Shown here in pieces: positions 945 to 15,180 of a stretch of DNA of 15,321 nt. The position numbers and the translations under genes were made by a program. Positions within the stretch are counted from its first letter, which is position 1. The number at the start of each line of letters is the position of its first letter. The notes below the pieces were generated by a model. It ran no database searches, was not told where the DNA came from, and saw only the letters and a list, made by a program, of their open reading frames with translations. The stretch lies in IMG/VR virus record IMGVR_UViG_2698536443_000012. One strand, 5' to 3'. Source of the stretch: a virus. Taxonomy: Duplodnaviria > Heunggongvirae > Uroviricota > Caudoviricetes.

Positions 945-1133
945 TTATCCAGCCGGTATTTCGTTATTCAGGTTCAGCGATACTTTTTTTAACGGGAGGC
1001 ATTCACCGGGGATTTTTTGTTCGTCCCTTACCTGAATGCAGGATGACTTACTGTCATAAATTCCGGTAATCACATTTTGTGGCTCACCCGTTATAAGAAA
1101 AACGGTCATCACCAGTGCAAATGCTGAAGTCAC
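945..1133 (-). CDS. Small protein with hydrophobic N-terminus, YdfD-like (62 aa)
   Basis: GTG start overlaps the dicB stop (GTGA), suggesting translational coupling. N-terminal hydrophobic stretch SAFALVMTVFLITG. Size and position match the ydfD slot downstream of dicB. Confidence 0.5.
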   Translation of the reverse strand: MTSAFALVMTVFLITGEPQNVITGIYDSKSSCIQVRDEQKIPGECLPLKKVSLNLNNEIPAG

Positions 1134-1318
1134 TGCTGTTCTCCGATAATACCAAGTTCAAGAAGGGCAATTCTGGAAAGTATGGAATTATCATTGAGAA
1201 GATAAGGTTCATATTTTCTCATCTTAATGGCATCTTCCGTAAACTCCCGGTTACTGAGCAGAACACCAATATCAAAACAACCTTCAGACGTATTAACGTT
1301 TGGTAATAACGTTTCCAT
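1130..1318 (-). CDS. dicB: Cell division inhibitor DicB
   Basis: 62-aa ORF beginning METLLPNVNTSEGCF, matching my memory of E. coli DicB. AGGA RBS 7 nt upstream of the ATG at 1318. Lies just downstream of dicF. Confidence 0.8.
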   Translation of the reverse strand: METLLPNVNTSEGCFDIGVLLSNREFTEDAIKMRKYEPYLLNDNSILSRIALLELGIIGEQQ

Positions 1319-1487: not shown

Positions 1488-1545
1488 AAAAAGGGCGGCA
1501 GAGCAGTCACGGAGTAAAACTGATACCGCCAAACGTCACCAGAAA
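1488..1545 (-). ncRNA. dicF: DicF small RNA (ftsZ-targeting antisense sRNA)
   Basis: Reverse complement of 1488-1545 reads TTTCTGGTGACGTTTGGCGGTATCAGTTTTACTCCGTGACTGCTCTGCCGCCCTTTTT, which matches the DicF sequence as I recall it and ends in a GC stem plus U-run. Exact processed ends cannot be set from sequence. Confidence 0.7.
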
Positions 1546-1878
1546 ATTGATAACAGAGGGCGTTGCAGCGGGGTTGTCACTTAAGCGTATGGTCAACCTG
1601 ACAACCCGGTGTCCTCAACGGGGAAGGAATAACCCCTCCATACTTACCGCCGCGCCATTTCGCGGATTGCCACAACCGGAAGCGCACGGTCGACGAAAAT
1701 TTAACGACAGGCTATCTATGAACCAGCTACCTCGCCGTGCGCTTTCGCGTTATGGTCTGACTTTTCAGAGAAATATCCTTTCAGTAAACTGTCAGTGCCG
1801 GATGTTCACCCGTGTCCGGCGCACGCACTCCACTTCACCCGTGGAGAACTCCTTAATTACCAACCCTCAGGAGGGTGA

Positions 1879-2112
1879 ATGTTAAAATCAACTCTTATTG
1901 CTAAATGCCTTTATCAAAATCGCATGGTAAGCAGCATTTCAATAGGCGAGTCTGCAGTTAAAAGTATTTTCGAAGAGTACTTTCCCGGGCATGATTTTAA
2001 TAAATGGAATACCAAATTACCGCCAGCAGTTTCAACGCGTATTCTGAAAGCAACCGAAAGAGCAAGTACAATTCGCGTTAACTATTTCATTAAAGATTTG
2101 TGGGATCTTTGA
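1879..2112 (+). CDS. Hypothetical protein (77 aa), AT-rich cargo gene
   Basis: ATG preceded by AGGAGG with 5-nt spacing (CTCAGGAGGGTGAATG). Protein-like composition. Markedly AT-rich relative to flanks. 3' end overlaps the convergent 135-aa ORF. Confidence 0.5.
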   Translation: MLKSTLIAKCLYQNRMVSSISIGESAVKSIFEEYFPGHDFNKWNTKLPPAVSTRILKATERASTIRVNYFIKDLWDL

Positions 2113-2497
2113 TATCCACAGAGCCTAAAGTATGTGCATATGGATGTGCTATTATGCGCCCTCGCAGATTTGCATCATTTTCTAAATTCACTGAACGAAA
2201 CAGGGCATCAACAAGGCTCTGTACAATGCAAAGGCAATCGAAGACTGTCGCCGTTTCTGTTTTGATTGATGAAAGAACATGGCCATTCACGCAAACAGAA
2301 ATTACCCGTTTATTAACATCGCTTTCCTGCTTTTGATTATCAGAACCATATAGCCCAGAAAAAGCATTGCGCACATTACGAACCATATTATCGATGGTTT
2401 CTTTTTCTGCGGTACTAAGGTCAAGAGTAGCCAGTTGTGAACGAACTATATTCGATGCCATTTCCTGTAATGGCGTTGGTAAATCTTTAAATTCCAT
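2090..2497 (-). CDS. Hypothetical protein (135 aa), AT-rich cargo gene
   Basis: ATG at 2497 with GAGG RBS about 7 nt upstream. No family recognised by eye. Downstream of the ydfC-like gene on the same strand. Confidence 0.55.
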   Translation of the reverse strand: MEFKDLPTPLQEMASNIVRSQLATLDLSTAEKETIDNMVRNVRNAFSGLYGSDNQKQESDVNKRVISVCVNGHVLSSIKTETATVFDCLCIVQSLVDALFRSVNLENDANLRGRIIAHPYAHTLGSVDIKDPTNL

Positions 2498-2519
2498 TAT
2501 TAGCCTCGTTGGTTAGCTA

Positions 2520-2738
2520 TTAACGTGGGTATGTAATCATTCTGGCAATGCTTAATGCCGCTGCTTTTTCCAGATTGGTGATATCCTGCTCCAGAGCGGA
2601 CAGATTTTCAGCCTGCTTAGCCCTGGCTTCATTGGCCCATTTCAGGTCCTGCACCGCCTTAATTTTCTGGTGCATCCACTCATAAAGTTCATCATCGGTA
2701 TAGTCTGGCGCGATGATGACGGGGTCTCGTTTCTGCAT
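2520..2738 (-). CDS. Small hypothetical protein (72 aa), YdfC-like by size and position
   Basis: ATG at 2738 with AAGGAG RBS about 6 nt upstream. Lies in the DicA-repressed leftward operon. The YdfC assignment rests on length and synteny only. Confidence 0.5.
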   Translation of the reverse strand: MQKRDPVIIAPDYTDDELYEWMHQKIKAVQDLKWANEARAKQAENLSALEQDITNLEKAAALSIARMITYPR

Positions 2739-2810: not shown

Positions 2811-3167
2811 TTACTCGAGAGGAAATTGGTTATGAATACAATCAAGTTTTCTTGCCCAGAATGTGGTGGCTAAGTCTTTGACACATCCTTTAAGCCGCAG
2901 GGCTCTGACAGTTTCGCGGGAGCCATCTGCAAAAATTGTGGTCACCTTGTAACTGAAGATGAGTCCTCGCAGTTCGATGACGAAATCGTTGACAATATCT
3001 TCGGTGCACTCACCAGAGACTTTCTGAAGTAAAGGCGCATACCGCTTAGTTACCGCTCTGATAACTCTTACCTGTCCGGCAATGGCGCTGATATCAATAT
3101 AAAGCGCCATCGCTGTTTCTTTGCTGATCCCTGGACGCCTTCCATTCTGATGTTTGACTTCGCCCAC
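2811..3167 (-). CDS. Hypothetical protein (118 aa), first ORF of the leftward DicA-controlled operon
   Basis: GTG start at 3167 with GAGGA RBS about 7 nt upstream. About 75 nt downstream of a minus-strand promoter-like TTGACC-17-CTAAAT. No recognisable domain; could instead be two smaller genes (ydfA/ydfB-like). Confidence 0.4.
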   Translation of the reverse strand: MGEVKHQNGRRPGISKETAMALYIDISAIAGQVRVIRAVTKRYAPLLQKVSGECTEDIVNDFVIELRGLIFSYKVTTIFADGSRETVRALRLKGCVKDLATTFWARKLDCIHNQFPLE

Positions 3168-3239
3168 TGAGAAATCCTCTGCTTCCCCTTAACGCCGGGT
3201 AGCGGAACTGTTTGCTGAGAACACCGTGCGGTGTCTTGA

Positions 3240-3300
3240 TGAGTAGAATTTAGAATAGCCTAAGAGTTATGGTCAAGCTTTTTGTGTAGAAAAACCTAAG
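3240..3300 (-). promoter_or_regulatory. Candidate DicA-repressed leftward promoter (dicBp-like) with operator half-sites
   Basis: On the minus strand, -35 TTGACC (plus 3271-3276) and -10 CTAAAT (plus 3248-3253) with 17-bp spacer. Minus-strand CTTAGGTTTTTCTACA (plus 3285-3300) nearly repeats CTTAGGTTTCTCTACG in the dicA-dicC intergenic region. TTAG-N6-CTAA at 3250-3263. Confidence 0.4.
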
Positions 3301-3374: not shown

Positions 3375-3782
3375 TTATTTATTTGCGCTTCTTTTGCGAG
3401 CTTTGAGTAGTTCTTCAAAAAGTTTGTTGAAATTCTCAACTCGAGCACGCATCTCTGACAACAGAGCCTTTTGCTCTGACTCAGGCAGTGCGTCGAACAG
3501 TTGAAGCAACTCTTTTTGATCTTCTGTCAGATTGACTGGCTGATTATCTGGGATCGGTTCGCCTGGTTGCTTATCTTCATCTCCAAAAAGAAGCCAAGTC
3601 GGCGAGCACTGAAGCGCCTGGCTCAGTGCGAATAATCTCTTCCCCGCTGGCTGTGTTTCATCTCTTTCCCATTGAGAAATTGTTACGTGAGCCACTTTGA
3701 CCAGCTTACCTAATGCGGCCTGAGACAGTTTTAATTTTTTTCGCCTGTATAAGAGGCGAGCACCGAAGGTTTCGTTTTTCAT
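3375..3782 (-). CDS. dicA: Prophage repressor DicA (XRE-family HTH, cI-like)
   Basis: 135-aa ORF with HTH motif LSQAALGKLVKVAHVTISQWERDETQP and C-terminal ...ALPESEQ...EMRARVENFNKLFEELLKAR closely resembling E. coli DicA as I recall it. Divergent from dicC. Confidence 0.85.
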   Translation of the reverse strand: MKNETFGARLLYRRKKLKLSQAALGKLVKVAHVTISQWERDETQPAGKRLFALSQALQCSPTWLLFGDEDKQPGEPIPDNQPVNLTEDQKELLQLFDALPESEQKALLSEMRARVENFNKLFEELLKARKRSANK

Positions 3783-4621: not shown

Positions 4622-5633
4622 AAAGGTGAAAACCGGCAGTTCATCCAGTAAGTCAGTATTGACCTGGCTTGCTGATATGTGCGGTGCCGATTTGTGTGCA
4701 TACCCGTCTGTATCTGCACTGGCAGAAGTAACGGAACTGAACAAAAAGACTGTGCAGGACAGCTTACGACACCTGATGGAGATTGGGTTAATTGTTGATA
4801 CCGGTGAGAGAAAAGGCAGAACAAAGCAAATTGTGGTGTACCGACTTATCGGTGTAGAAGAAAGTGTTGCCGAGCCTGAATACACCCAAAAACGGGAGTC
4901 TTTAAAGGTGGGTAAAATTGGTGCTGTTAATAAAAACAGTACCGAAAATGGTTATGTTTCAGCACAAAACAGACCCAAAAACAGAACTCTTAGCTGCATG
5001 GAAAATAACCAAAGACACCCAAATTTTCCATCAAAGACACCCAAAAACGGATCACGGAACCCAAAGGAACCCAAAGATCTAAACCCCACACATAACGCAC
5101 GCGAGAGTGCTCCGACCAGTGAGCAGGAAGTTTTGTCGTTACAGGCAGCCCCCCCTGTATTCCTGTATGGCCTGAGCGAACCCATCGGAAAATTCCCGAT
5201 GAGCGATAGCTGGTATCCGTCACGGGATTTTCGACGACGGGCTGCGTTGTGGGGGATGGCTTTGCCGGAGACAGAATTTACACCTGCTGAACTTGCCGCC
5301 TTCCGGGACTACTGGGCAGCGGAGGGGAAAGTGTTTACGCAGATTCAGTGGGAGCAGAAATTCGCCCGTCACGTAAATCACGTCAGGGCGCAGGTTAAAC
5401 CAGTCAGCAAAGGGGTAAACCATGCAGCAGCACCAGGTGGCACCGCATCACGGGCAGTTCAGGAAATTCGGGCAGCACGTGAGCAGTGGGAACGTGAAAA
5501 CGGATTTATCAGCGACGGAAACGGCCTGGAAGCTGTGGGAACTCATGGGGGTGGTTTATTCGAACCGCTGGATCCAGAAGAACGGGGCCGCACCTTCGAA
5601 GCTCTGGATTGCACAGATTGGCGCGATGACTGA
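4593..5633 (+). CDS. Phage replication initiator, lambda O-like (N-terminal winged helix)
   Basis: ATG at 4593 with AGGGG RBS. N-terminus SIDALRWAKK...SVSALAEVTELNKKTVQDSLRHLMEIGLIV is a winged-helix DNA-binding region typical of phage replisome organisers. Iteron-like repeats lie inside the coding region. Followed by a P-like gene. Confidence 0.65.
   Translation: MSIDALRWAKKVKTGSSSSKSVLTWLADMCGADLCAYPSVSALAEVTELNKKTVQDSLRHLMEIGLIVDTGERKGRTKQIVVYRLIGVEESVAEPEYTQKRESLKVGKIGAVNKNSTENGYVSAQNRPKNRTLSCMENNQRHPNFPSKTPKNGSRNPKEPKDLNPTHNARESAPTSEQEVLSLQAAPPVFLYGLSEPIGKFPMSDSWYPSRDFRRRAALWGMALPETEFTPAELAAFRDYWAAEGKVFTQIQWEQKFARHVNHVRAQVKPVSKGVNHAAAPGGTASRAVQEIRAAREQWERENGFISDGNGLEAVGTHGGGLFEPLDPEERGRTFEALDCTDWRDD
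4881..5076. repeat. Iteron-like direct repeats (putative origin) inside the O-like gene
   Basis: Repeated ACCCAAA(AAC) cores: ACACCCAAAAACGG at 4883, AGACCCAAAAACAG at 4971, AGACACCCAAA at 5013 and 5035, and tandem GGAACCCAAA at 5057 and 5067. Confidence 0.5.
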
Positions 5634-7714: not shown

Positions 7715-8473
7715 ATGAGGAACATAATGGCAGGTTTTTTAATATTCCTGTCTTCTGCTGCTTATGCTGATATCAATCTGTATGGTCCTGGTGGCCCGCA
7801 TACAGCCTTGCTTGATGCAGCCAAACTTTATGCCGAAAAAACAGGTATTATAGTGAACGTTCATTACGGCCCACAGAACAAATGGAATGAAGATGCCAAA
7901 AAAAATGCAGATATCTTGTTTGGCGCATCAGAACAATCTGCTCTGGCTATCATTCGGGACCATAAAGACAGCTTCAGTGAAAAAGATATTCAGCCTCTTT
8001 ATCTGCGAAAAAGTATTTTACTGGTAAAGAAAGGTAATCCTAAAAATATCCGGAGTATTGACGACCTGACCAGACCTGGGATTGGCGTAATTGTTAATGA
8101 TGGTGGTGGTACCAGTAATACATCAGGCACTGGCGTCTGGGAAGATATTGCCGGACGTAAAGGGAATATAGAAACTGTCGCCGCAATCCGAAAAAATATT
8201 ATTTTATATGCGCCCAATAGCGGAACTGCACGTAAGGCTCTTGAGAATCAGCCTGGAGCAGATGTCTGGATAACCTGGGCTGACTGGGCAGCCAGTAATC
8301 CAGAAATTGGTGATGTCGTGGAAATAGCGCCAGACTACGTGATATGGCGTGATATGAACATTACAGTACGTCAGGATGCAAATGATGAAACCCGTCGATT
8401 TGCAGAATGGCTACAAACCGATGAAGCGGCGCCTGCATTCAAAAAATATGGCTGGACCAGGAAAGGCACTTGA
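7715..8473 (+). CDS. Secreted/periplasmic solute-binding protein, ModA-like (type 2 periplasmic binding fold), orphan
   Basis: AAGGAG RBS 6 nt upstream. N-terminal signal peptide MRNIMAGFLIFLSSAAYA then DINLY. C-terminal ...RRFAEWLQTDEAAPAFKKYGWT resembles the ModA C-terminus (...FYDYLKGPQAAEIFKRYGFT, from memory). AT-rich gene with no adjacent permease or ATPase genes. Confidence 0.7.
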   Translation: MRNIMAGFLIFLSSAAYADINLYGPGGPHTALLDAAKLYAEKTGIIVNVHYGPQNKWNEDAKKNADILFGASEQSALAIIRDHKDSFSEKDIQPLYLRKSILLVKKGNPKNIRSIDDLTRPGIGVIVNDGGGTSNTSGTGVWEDIAGRKGNIETVAAIRKNIILYAPNSGTARKALENQPGADVWITWADWAASNPEIGDVVEIAPDYVIWRDMNITVRQDANDETRRFAEWLQTDEAAPAFKKYGWTRKGT

Positions 8474-8505: not shown

Positions 8506-8808
8506 CCGGATGCCGCGCCAGCGGCATGTAGGGGCAGCTCACAAAACGGAAAAAATTGTACGCTAAGCCTCGCCAGGTGAACTGAATTCATTCCGATATG
8601 GGAATTCCCATATCGGGCGAAAACGGTTTGCTGTAACGGCAGAGTTAAGTAGGATTGCTGCGGGTGCTTGAGGCTATCTGCCTCGGGCATGAACACCAAC
8701 GGCAGATAGATAAAAGCCCCACCCGACTATAAATCGAAGTGAGGCCCCTATATGCTCGTCACATATAGATTGCCTCTTACGGACCGAAAGGTCAAGGAGA
8801 AGCAGGCT

Positions 8809-8964
8809 ATGAAGCAGCAAAAGGCGATGTTAATCGCCCTGATCGTCATCTGTTTAACCGTCATAGTGACGGCACTGGTAACGAGGAAAGACCTCTGCGA
8901 GGTACGAATCCGAACCGGCCAGACGGAGGTCGCTGTCTTCACAGCTTACGAACCTGAGGAGTAA
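8809..8964 (+). CDS. hokD: Hok-family membrane toxin (HokD/RelF-like), with in-frame upstream mok extension from 8752
   Basis: 51-aa ORF MKQQKAMLIALIVICLTVIVTALVTRKDLCEVRIRTGQTEVAVFTAYEPEE, the Hok family signature. The in-frame extension MLVTYRLPLTDRKVKEKQA with GAGG RBS fits a mok reading frame. Confidence 0.85.
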   Translation: MKQQKAMLIALIVICLTVIVTALVTRKDLCEVRIRTGQTEVAVFTAYEPEE

Positions 8965-12094: not shown

Positions 12095-12170
12095 GGCCCT
12101 TTAGCTCAGTGGTGAGAGCGAGCGACTCATAATCGCCAGGTCGCTGGTTCAAATCCAGCAAGGGCCACCA
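12095..12170 (+). tRNA. ileZ: tRNA-Ile2 (anticodon CAU, lysidine type), ileZ-like
   Basis: Hand-folded cloverleaf: acceptor GGCCCTT/AAGGGCC, D-arm GCTC...GAGC, anticodon loop CTCATAA, T-loop TTCAAAT, encoded CCA. Close to E. coli ileX as I recall it. Confidence 0.85.
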
Positions 12171-12171
12171 A

Positions 12172-12247
12172 CCGCCACTAGCCATCAGGAAAGAGCGTCA
12201 ACCCTTTAAGTTGAGTGTGCGAGGTTCGAGTCCCCGGTGGTGGTCCA
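12172..12247 (+). tRNA. tRNA-like gene, atypical (possible argN-like); identity unresolved
   Basis: Acceptor CCGCCAC/GTGGTGG with one GU pair, T-arm CGAGG-TTCGAGT-CCCCG, anticodon stem TCAAC/GTTGA with loop CCTTTAA (C at position 33, anticodon UUU by position), degenerate D-stem, encoded CCA. Confidence 0.45.
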
Positions 12248-12260
12248 TTATCGGTATTCT

Positions 12261-12334
12261 GCGTTGTTAGCTCAGCAGGACAGAGCAATTGCCTTCTAAG
12301 CAATCGGTCACTGGTTCGACTCCAGTACAACGCG
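12261..12334 (+). tRNA. tRNA-Arg (anticodon UCU), argO-like
   Basis: Acceptor GCGTTGT/ACAACGC, D-arm GCTC...GAGC, anticodon stem ATTGC/GCAAT with loop CTTCTAA, T-arm ACTGG-TTCGACT-CCAGT. No encoded CCA (CTA follows). Confidence 0.8.
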
Positions 12335-13868: not shown

Positions 13869-13943
13869 GGGTCAGTCGTATAAAGGTCATTACGGAAGGC
13901 TGTTAACCTTCTTATCGTGGTTCGAGTCCACGCTGTCCCGCCA
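13869..13943 (+). tRNA. tRNA-Asn-like (anticodon GUU)
   Basis: Acceptor GGGTCAG/CTGTCCC (one T-T mismatch), anticodon stem GAAGG/CCTTC with loop CTGTTAA, T-arm CGTGG-TTCGAGT-CCACG, encoded CCA. D-arm is weak (3 bp). Confidence 0.55.
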
Positions 13944-13948
13944 AACAT

Positions 13949-14024
13949 GCTGGTTTAGCTCCAATGGTAGAGCAACTGACTTGTAATCATCAGGTCGCCA
14001 GTTCGATTCCGGTAGCCGGCACCA
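13949..14024 (+). tRNA. tRNA-Thr-like (anticodon UGU), thrU-like with weakened anticodon stem
   Basis: Near-identical to E. coli thrU as I recall it, except the 3' anticodon-stem strand (TCATC instead of TCAGT) leaves only 3 canonical base pairs. Anticodon loop CTTGTAA, T-loop TTCGATT, encoded CCA. Confidence 0.55.
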
Positions 14025-14027
14025 TAT

Positions 14028-14102
14028 GCGGGTACCGTATAATGGCTATTACCTCAGCCTTCCAGGCTGATGATGCGGGTTCGATTCCCGCTACCCGCTC
14101 CA
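14028..14102 (+). tRNA. tRNA-Gly (anticodon UCC), glyT-like
   Basis: Sequence GCGGGTACCGTATAATGGCTATTACCTCAGCCTTCCAGGCTGATGATGCGGGTTCGATTCCCGCTACCCGCTCCA differs from E. coli glyT (from memory) at only a few positions. Perfect acceptor stem, encoded CCA. Confidence 0.8.
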
Positions 14103-14866: not shown

Positions 14867-15180
14867 TTTTTTTGTTTGCTGTTTATTAAAAACACTTCTG
14901 CATGGTGAATCCCCCTGTGCGGAGGGGCGATCAGCAACCAGGTATATGGGATAATCGCGGATTCAGGTGCTGATACTGAATTCACCGGGAGGCACCCGGC
15001 ACCATGCTTTGCCACAAAAGTGTTGTTTCTGTTTTTCTCAAACTATCATCATTATCCCTTTATTTCCGGCTGCGCATGGCGTGGCCTTTTTTTTACGACC
15101 AGCCACTGGCAGATGGCCATCCTGTAATTTGATTCCGGTTCCGGCTTTTTAACTCTGTTCCTGTACACGGGAGAAATTCG

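Follow-up and report, generated by a model that had tools for sequence, protein, structure and literature searches.

What is encoded in the AT-rich block between ydfC and dicF in the dicB-type operon of a lambdoid Escherichia coli prophage, and do its two small convergent genes belong together? The question concerns a tailed-phage DNA of 15,321 nucleotides (Caudoviricetes; IMG/VR record IMGVR_UViG_2698536443_000012), hereafter the window, which is made up of a lambdoid prophage integrated next to ompW. In a first-pass annotation of this DNA the block had been described as roughly 1 kb of acquired cargo within a DicA-repressed operon, carrying two unrecognised proteins, here named A (77 aa) and B (135 aa), whose overlapping 3′ ends suggested antisense coupling. 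Judged from their strict pairing across genera and their co-diversification, A and B behave as one module, and by the same sequence comparisons the pair is an old and widespread element of temperate phages in the Enterobacterales and beyond. Tentatively, and with a likelihood that we place short of even, the block may be the E. coli version of a conserved two-gene temperate-phage module with the layout of a noncontiguous operon, in which A would act as an effector in lysogeny and B as its neutraliser upon induction.

The block and its parts have the following positions in the window.

1866-2499: the cassette, a segment of 634 bp with 39.1% G+C that is present here and absent from K-12 Qin (BLAST of the window versus NC_000913)
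1869-1874, plus strand: Shine-Dalgarno sequence AGGAGG of A, 4 nt before the ATG (sequence)
1879-2112, plus strand: gene A, 77 aa, ATG start (list of open reading frames)
2090-2497, minus strand: gene B, 135 aa, ATG start (list of open reading frames)
2090-2112: 23-bp overlap of the 3′ ends of A and B, TTAAAGATTTGTGGGATCTTTGA, in which A ends with ...IKDLWDL-stop and B with ...KDPTNL-stop (sequence)

Both open reading frames (ORFs), their ribosome-binding sites (for B, GAGG followed by a 6-nt gap and the ATG) and the overlap were confirmed in the sequence. The AT-rich character of the block was borne out as well, its G+C content of 39.1% standing against 48-49% in flanks of equal length and 48.4% in the whole window, which places it among the lowest 3.4% of 634-bp segments. 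An extra segment relative to K-12 does exist at this junction, its size being 634 bp and not the roughly 1 kb first stated. The window and K-12 Qin are collinear on both sides of the cassette with 95-96% identity, the distance between ydfC and dicF is 340 bp in K-12 Qin versus 975 bp in the window, and in the BLAST comparison the K-12 locus positions 3062/3063, which are contiguous exactly there, correspond to window positions 2500/1865. The 634-bp indel contains just the two ORFs and the Shine-Dalgarno sequence of A, and its junctions show only a few bases of similarity (GCTAA / GGTTGGTAATTAAGG).

Gene A belongs to phrog_10348 (PHROG E 1e-47) and has relatives in 33 clusters of the Enterobacterales with 55-96% identity; full-length relatives of 77 aa with 55-72% identity were found in Klebsiella, Raoultella, Serratia, Dickeya, Xenorhabdus, Yersinia, Morganella and Salmonella. 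An exhaustive profile search yielded 160 representatives (50% clustering), nearly all of them stand-alone proteins of 74-80 aa, which reach Colwellia and Burkholderia. For unsaturated pairs, in the annotated frame and outside the overlap, the ratio of nonsynonymous to synonymous substitution rates (dN/dS) of A was 0.04-0.31, mostly about 0.13-0.2, and in the two shifted frames the nonsynonymous value exceeded the synonymous one (pN > pS); by this measure A is under purifying selection as a protein. The AlphaFold model of A is a compact, all-helical protein of five helices with a predicted local distance difference test score (pLDDT) of 97.2 and a predicted template modelling score (pTM) of 0.86. 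A is small and soluble, and the grand average of hydropathy (GRAVY) is about -0.1 to -0.2 for A and B.

B is built differently, from two parts. The N-terminal domain (residues 1-50, about 2348-2497) has a helical hairpin at residues 8-47 in the AlphaFold2 model, the linker (residues 51-61) is disordered there (below pLDDT 50), and the conserved B domain (residues about 60-135, 2093-2320) is modelled as a beta-hairpin-plus-helices structure at residues 65-124, the confidence of the whole model being moderate (pLDDT 73). The family phrog_1363 spans B over its full length and phrog_23433 spans residues 55-128. The N-terminal 50 or so residues recur in many E. coli proteins with entirely different C-termini, for which lengths of 124, 133, 137 and 208-212 aa are given, and the C-terminal 75 or so residues are homologous to stand-alone proteins of 75-86 aa in other genera. 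The family of the B domain comprises 115 clusters with the invariant motifs VNG, T..AVAADY and LE.EAN.SG.TI.H. By homology, the 135-aa B is a fusion of a slot-specific Escherichia-type N-terminal domain with the conserved B domain.

Other N-terminal partners of the B domain are a domain marked by LLEDAKRLQQ and a ClpX-type C4 zinc finger (PF06689, E 6e-9), the latter in a Citrobacter freundii prophage (L089 3001-3420) and also in P0178 and P0234-P0239. In a 191-aa B protein of a Yersinia frederiksenii prophage (L015 4212-4787) the N-terminal part resembles YdfC; the YdfC of the window aligned to it with 35% identity over 60 aa (BLASTP, E 1e-10), and this fusion hints that ydfC may belong functionally with the module. 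Two further ideas about B were dropped: the EANASGKT motif as a P-loop, since it is one residue short of a Walker A motif and lies within a 75-aa domain, and an N-like antiterminator, since B is without an arginine-rich motif and is predicted to be folded.

Based on the dN/dS of A, its model at pLDDT 97, its 160 representatives and the 115 clusters of the B domain, both A and B are judged to be genuine genes. That neither protein had been recognised agrees with the database searches, in which no match for A or B was obtained in Pfam (where 74 diverse A-family members were also without a match), NCBIfam or PADLOC, and no sequence match in profile searches of the PDB. PADLOC-DB 2.0, whose library dates from 2023, had no family for A, B, YdfC or the 118-aa ORF read at 2811-3167, which contains the RefSeq 99-aa gene of the operon; the Pfam family SieB (PF14163) did not match A or B at E ≤ 1, and Rfam gave no match within 1866-2499. 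The structure prediction that had been proposed as a check gave a confident model for A and a two-domain model for B, and the fold searches with both gave no informative match: A had no relative in the PDB or in BFVD, where Foldseek returned its own family only. Literature searches on the RefSeq protein accessions found nothing, those for recent prophage-defence screens found nothing relevant, and the dicF and ydfC papers that were found do not mention the cassette. The first-pass annotation had named widespread core genes with known function as the outcome that would speak against a new module; the genes proved to be widespread, and no characterised match was among their relatives.

The evidence that A and B belong together comes from a census with hidden Markov models, which comprised all 88 loci with either A or B. 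Both genes were present in 78 loci with 33 distinct protein pairs and were convergent in every one of them, with overlaps of 23 bp (n = 66), 26 bp (n = 8), 51 bp (n = 3) and 38 bp (n = 1). The pairs span Serratia, Klebsiella, Dickeya, Yersinia, Salmonella, Xenorhabdus, Citrobacter, Proteus and one high-GC phage contig, where the pair with the 38-bp overlap adjoins a divergent helix-turn-helix (HTH) switch. Each context of an A homologue that was inspected (Serratia, Klebsiella, Dickeya, Yersinia, Salmonella and Xenorhabdus) had a converging B-domain gene with overlapping stops. An A-family ORF also converges on each of the B subfamilies with different C-terminal tails and on the ClpX-zinc-finger fusion; gene callers had mis-called or missed it in two cases, L089 being an example of a missed one. 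Divergent B subfamilies were paired with divergent A subfamilies, and the A-A and B-B distances were correlated (Mantel r 0.78 overall and 0.67 without the E. coli type), a value that none of 2000 permutations reached. B was found without A in 9 loci, namely 7 with an E. coli 201-aa variant, 1 rearranged copy and 1 contig that ends about 330 bp past B, and A without B in 1 locus only, in which the C-terminus of A is decayed.

A scan of viral contigs that started from distant A members detected 2 loci, one scan of genome contigs yielded 5 loci only, including two of Proteus and one on a contig labelled 'Collinsella', and another scan of genome contigs gave no locus. In the contig JAIJJM010000357.1 (L092), which is labelled as a metagenome-assembled genome (MAG) of Collinsella sp., the A gene is 99% identical to the E. 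coli one; this contig is almost certainly an E. coli prophage contig that was mis-binned into a Collinsella MAG.

The overlap itself encodes the invariant ...FIKDLW.L-stop of A and the ...K(D/G)L-stop of B on a near-palindrome (AAAGATCTTT in Serratia), and from this conservation the 23 bp reflect two conserved C-termini. The convergent overlap that had suggested antisense coupling is real as a feature, and the larger antisense element is the operon transcript, which would have to run across all of A on its way to dicF and dicB. The operon around the cassette has the following parts, listed in its direction of transcription.

3375-3782, minus strand: DicA-like HTH repressor gene (Pfam HTH_3, E 4e-14; annotation)
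3247-3276, minus strand: promoter-like site of the early-left operon, TTGACC, 18 nt, TAAATT (promoter consensus scan and sequence)
2811-3110, minus strand: gene of a 99-aa hypothetical protein (RefSeq annotation)
2520-2738, minus strand: ydfC, the gene directly upstream of B in the operon (RefSeq annotation)
1493-1544, minus strand: dicF small RNA, downstream of the cassette in operon direction (Rfam RF00039, 76.7 bits, gathering score 48)
1130-1318, minus strand: dicB (Pfam DicB, E 4e-38; annotation)

The window thereby shows the minus-strand order of a Qin-type early-left operon (promoter-like site, 99-aa ORF, ydfC, B, dicF, dicB), with the DicA-like repressor, ydfC, dicF and dicB in order on one strand as in the Qin/dicB type; the location between ydfC and dicF in a DicA-type operon was confirmed by annotation and Rfam. 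A segment (3183-3241) with 95% identity to the dicA-ydfA intergenic region of K-12 follows 6 nt downstream of the promoter-like site. Positions 1400-2800 are 100% identical to E. coli O26:H11 11368 and to many O145, O103, O111 and O157:H7 genomes. B is co-oriented with the operon and A alone is antisense to it, and a transcript that reaches dicF and dicB crosses all of A in antisense.

A position next to the immunity region, as first described, was found beyond E. coli too, where the module also adjoins the immunity switch. In most of the other genera B heads the early-left genes: prophages of Klebsiella, Serratia, Dickeya, Salmonella and Citrobacter have it as the first one that follows the gene of the CI repressor. 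Strong promoter-like sites precede B, such as TTGACC-18-TATTAT in L011 and TTGACA-16-CATAAT in L016. Upstream of A, all non-E. coli Enterobacterales loci carry a -35-like TTTTCA/TTTTAA, 18 nt and an extended -10 element TGnTA(T/C), which sits at a fixed distance of 39-42 nt before the ATG of A, even in a divergent A subfamily with a different leader. Because of this conservation and the match to the consensus, we infer that the element is A's own promoter outside E. coli, and therefore that A is probably transcribed as a unit of its own, which lies antisense within the early-left operon. A minus-strand RNA hairpin upstream of A was considered and dropped, as no consistent covariation was seen by eye and the fixed-distance TGnTAY fits a promoter better.

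Additional features were seen beside the module in two of these prophages. In the Klebsiella prophage L011 a weak DicF-like match (4874-4922, minus strand) scored 29.9 bits where the gathering score is 48; together with a terminator-like hairpin it follows A/B immediately in operon direction, mirroring the position of dicF in E. coli. In the Salmonella prophage L016 a SieB-family ORF (PF14163; 3195-3677, plus strand) lies beside the module in the orientation of A, antisense to the early-left operon, and together with A it suggests a cluster of prophage-expressed genes in that orientation.

In the E. coli version the region upstream of A is altered. The TGnTAY -10 element is absent from the window, and the consensus scan found no promoter directly upstream of A. 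The sequence at about 1800-1865, which is common to K-12, looks like a rearranged remnant and contains an 18-nt internal duplication. One candidate could be named.

1762-1790, plus strand: candidate weak promoter of A, TTTTCA, 17 nt, TAAACT (inferred from sequence)

It would give a leader of about 80 nt with two hairpins. The 32 nt that end at its -35 element (1737-1768) resemble the segment that ends at the -35 element of the A promoter in L071 and L075, with a similarity score of 27 versus 15.8 ± 2.2 for shuffles. The Shine-Dalgarno sequence of A in the window is stronger than in its relatives. With its promoter degenerate, A may have little or no expression in this E. coli lineage.

Among 5426 complete E. 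coli genomes, 646 (about 12%) carry the cassette, which lies on the ompW prophage in O157:H7 among others, and the isolated Escherichia phage Evi (LR597642) has it as well. Hundreds of genomes share an intact A with 100% identity, and frameshifted copies occur in P0153 and L055. Polymorphic sites within E. coli numbered 7 nonsynonymous and 3 synonymous in A, which are small numbers without a sign of constraint, and 8 and 8 in the B domain. Because sequence resembling that upstream of A in other phages persists in the flank shared with K-12, it appears more likely that K-12 Qin lost the cassette than that the window gained it recently. The initial description as acquired cargo was not supported in this respect: the pair is not a novelty that entered one E. 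coli prophage.

The site between ydfC (or ydfA) and dicF is occupied in other E. coli prophages by proteins with the same N-terminal domain and other C-terminal domains, each with its own convergent small ORF.

In-operon protein of 201 aa (B domain plus a 66-aa extension): convergent ORF of 63 aa, phrog_2605, 23-bp overlap
In-operon protein of 133 aa: convergent ORF of 64-76 aa, phrog_18692, 41-bp overlap
In-operon protein of 208 aa: convergent ORF of 69 aa, phrog_4274, abutting

The convergent ORFs of these three alleles are not remote homologues of A (hhalign probability < 1%). Among the carriers of the cassette, the B domain and A are 97-100% identical and the N-terminal domain occurs in two alleles with 62-64% identity, a difference that shows a recombination joint inside gene B.

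Further upstream in the operon, an ORF of 66 codons with a zinc-ribbon pattern (CPECGG...CKNCGH) and a GAGG Shine-Dalgarno sequence lies at 2832-3032 on the plus strand, antisense to the 99-aa gene (2811-3110, minus strand). Its codon 14 is a TAA stop in the window (2871-2873), which is GAA, with the frame intact, in the IMG/VR loci L036, L026, L037 and L038. It matched phrog_4852 (E 1e-9), with a weak Lar-like match (E 0.01) and Pfam zinc-ribbon families below threshold. This ORF may be a second antisense-embedded small gene of the operon that was pseudogenised here, and the annotated minus-strand ORF may be a shadow.

The arrangement of A and B is of a kind that has been described before. 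In two studies prophages were found to hold an immunity gene and a self-antidote in mutually exclusive expression via a noncontiguous operon (PMC11364771, PMC11087260). In Tai/Ati (tail assembly inhibition and anti-immunity gene) of phage phi80 and its relatives, the immunity gene, active in lysogeny, is placed antisense within the late operon, and the antidote is a gene of that operon and is produced in the lytic cycle only (PMC11364771). In Tha/Ith of Staphylococcus aureus phages, the opposing operon shuts down a small, overlapping gene on the antisense strand, whose promoter is constitutive (PMC11087260). By analogy, the operon around A/B would be repressed in lysogeny and A transcribed from its own promoter; upon induction or infection the strong operon promoter would make B first and silence A by convergent transcription. 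A would be a lysogeny-phase effector, most likely for immunity against or exclusion of incoming phages, which could harm the lytic growth of its own prophage, and B would be its cognate, early-made neutraliser, probably via direct binding, so that the two proteins antagonise each other. The site between ydfC and dicF would be a polymorphic slot for pairs of an in-operon gene and an antisense-embedded small gene. These roles are favoured because B occurs without A and A almost never without B, and because an antidote should be the earliest lytic product; the orphan pattern would fit a B that is harmless alone and an A that needs B. Several points weigh against this assignment: its polarity rests on few orphan cases, co-diversification is expected of any two tightly linked genes and is not evidence of interaction, the -10 element and a consensus promoter are missing upstream of A in the window, A shows frameshifted copies and no constraint among its few E. 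coli polymorphisms, the B model is of moderate confidence, and Pfam, NCBIfam, PADLOC and the fold searches gave no lead. Moreover, A, B and their family profiles showed no similarity to TaiEcA (PHI80_63) or AtiEcA (PHI80_64), with a best BLASTP E of 0.39 and hmmsearch scores of about 3 bits or below. Only the architecture makes a toxin-antitoxin or defence function plausible. That A and B are a new, widespread immunity/self-antidote pair of Proteobacteria temperate phages, with two families without known fold or domain and a switch by antisense embedding, and that the slot, including the ompW prophage of O157:H7, O26 and O145, is a hotspot in which at least four unrelated pairs were swapped behind a shared N-terminal domain, is a larger claim that we regard as rather doubtful in its entirety.

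Four other explanations were weighed against the assignment of A as effector and B as neutraliser. The roles could be reversed, B being a lytic-phase effector (a host-takeover or mildly toxic early protein) and A, a constitutive antisense gene, neutralising leaky B in lysogeny like an antitoxin, or like Ith relative to Tha. The anatomy would be the same, in Tha/Ith the small embedded antisense gene, with its constitutive promoter, acts as the inhibitor (PMC11087260), and the varied N-terminal fusions of B (E. coli domain, YdfC-like part, ClpX zinc finger) might be expected of an effector that is retargeted by adaptors. However, the B genes without A in E. coli prophages are awkward if B needs an antidote, the very first early gene suits an instantly acting antidote, and no toxin family was matched, which makes the reversal unlikely in our estimate. 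An equally small share of belief goes to the absence of any functional partnership, with A and B as independent accessory genes that travel together since recombination cannot split their overlapping 3′ ends undamaged: both conserved C-termini are written into one near-palindromic overlap, the Mantel correlation needs nothing beyond linkage to be explained, and small accessory genes without relation to each other abound in lambdoid early-left regions. Yet the pairing persists at high divergence and with different overlaps (23, 26, 38 and 51 bp), including the high-GC phage, the 201-aa variants show that the junction can be remodelled, and the other slot alleles repeat the two-gene design with unrelated proteins.

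For the E. coli copy in particular, A might be a decaying remnant after promoter loss, only B (with ydfC) still working as an ordinary gene of the dicB operon. The absent TGnTAY element with its rearranged promoter-homologous region, the 7:3 ratio in A compared with 8:8 in the B domain and the frameshift variants would all be in line with decay, but A is intact and identical in hundreds of genomes, its Shine-Dalgarno sequence is stronger than those of its relatives, a candidate promoter is present at 1762-1790, and polymorphism counts cannot decide the matter for a cassette of such young age in E. coli; we consider decay quite unlikely. Highly improbable is a type I-like toxin-antitoxin or antisense pair that acts through RNA, with one of the ORFs really being a regulatory RNA complementary to the 3′ end of the other. 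Convergent 3′ overlaps are typical of some type I systems and a hok/sok locus lies elsewhere in the window, but both A and B are conserved as proteins, with a dN/dS of A well below 1 and conserved family motifs, the Rfam search of the cassette was negative, and neither protein is a small hydrophobic peptide.

If A and B do act as effector and neutraliser, hypothetical proteins that about 12% of complete E. coli genomes carry, major Shiga-toxin-producing lineages among them, would receive names and a testable function, the same proteins would be explained in Klebsiella, Salmonella, Serratia, Yersinia and other prophages, and the interval from ydfC to dicF would become a defined and easily scanned hotspot for finding further pairs. 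DicF and DicB are made from a precursor transcript that includes the cassette, so that the latter may also influence the expression of these cell-division and phage-resistance factors.

Apart from the module, several other elements were located in the prophage. A hok/sok-type type I toxin-antitoxin locus consists of a sok RNA at 8662-8811 (plus strand; Rfam, 103.9 bits) and an overlapping 70-aa ORF at 8752-8964 (plus strand), which takes the position of a shorter hokD gene in the RefSeq annotation of a related genome. Five phage-borne tRNA genes lie in two groups (12095-12334 and 13869-14099, plus strand), with a match to the small RNA STnc100 downstream of them (14871-15043, plus strand; 104.7 bits). 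The virulence gene paa (AcfC-family adhesin) is located at 7715-8473 (plus strand), beside a frameshifted fimbrial gene.

Among the known systems, the dicB operon of K-12 Qin (ydfA-ydfB-ydfC-dicF-dicB under DicA) shares its backbone with the window: order and strand of the DicA-like repressor gene, ydfC, dicF and dicB agree, the flanks are 95-96% identical and the promoter region is common to both; it is without the 634-bp cassette, and the window has other sequence in place of ydfA and ydfB. Tai/Ati resembles A/B in being prophage-borne, in having one gene antisense in an operon of the lytic programme with the partner adjacent in that operon, and in the inheritance of both together; A likewise lies on the plus strand between B and dicF/dicB on the minus strand, antisense in a switch-governed operon, and the same holds in the 78 paired loci. 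However, Tai/Ati is situated in the Q-dependent late operon with divergent genes whose 5′ ends overlap (in phi80, 44365-44979 minus and 44960-45190 plus), whereas A/B is situated in the early-left operon with convergent genes whose 3′ ends overlap, and TaiEcA has 204 aa compared with 77 aa for A. Membership of A/B in the Tai/Ati family was rejected due to the lack of sequence similarity. Tha/Ith shares with A/B the small overlapping antisense gene beside the lysogeny switch, Ith being an inhibitor of its partner, and differs in that its operon is the lysogenic cI operon and the embedded inhibitor lytic, so that the timing is inverted relative to the lytic early-left operon of A/B; Tha is an HEPN RNase, whereas no HEPN or other known domain was found in A or B with Pfam, and the host phylum is a different one.

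Type II toxin-antitoxin systems are similar in comprising two small, linked and co-diversifying proteins on a mobile element beside a regulatory region, but they are co-directional, autoregulated bicistrons, whereas A and B are convergent in every paired locus and match no toxin or antitoxin family. Type I pairs such as hok/sok and RalR/RalA combine an untranslated antisense RNA with a small hydrophobic toxin peptide, and A/B has neither of the two. In SieB/Esc of P22 and lambda, the exclusion gene lies in the early-left region, is expressed by the prophage and is countered by a phage-made product in the phage's own lytic growth; the proposed layout of A/B is like it in this arrangement of exclusion gene and counter-product, SieB being a membrane protein of about 190 aa in contrast to the small and soluble A. 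The architecture of A/B is therefore of a known kind and its protein families are new and uncharacterised; if the proposed logic is true, an early-operon and convergent version would be added to the class of antisense-embedded prophage immunity and self-antidote systems.

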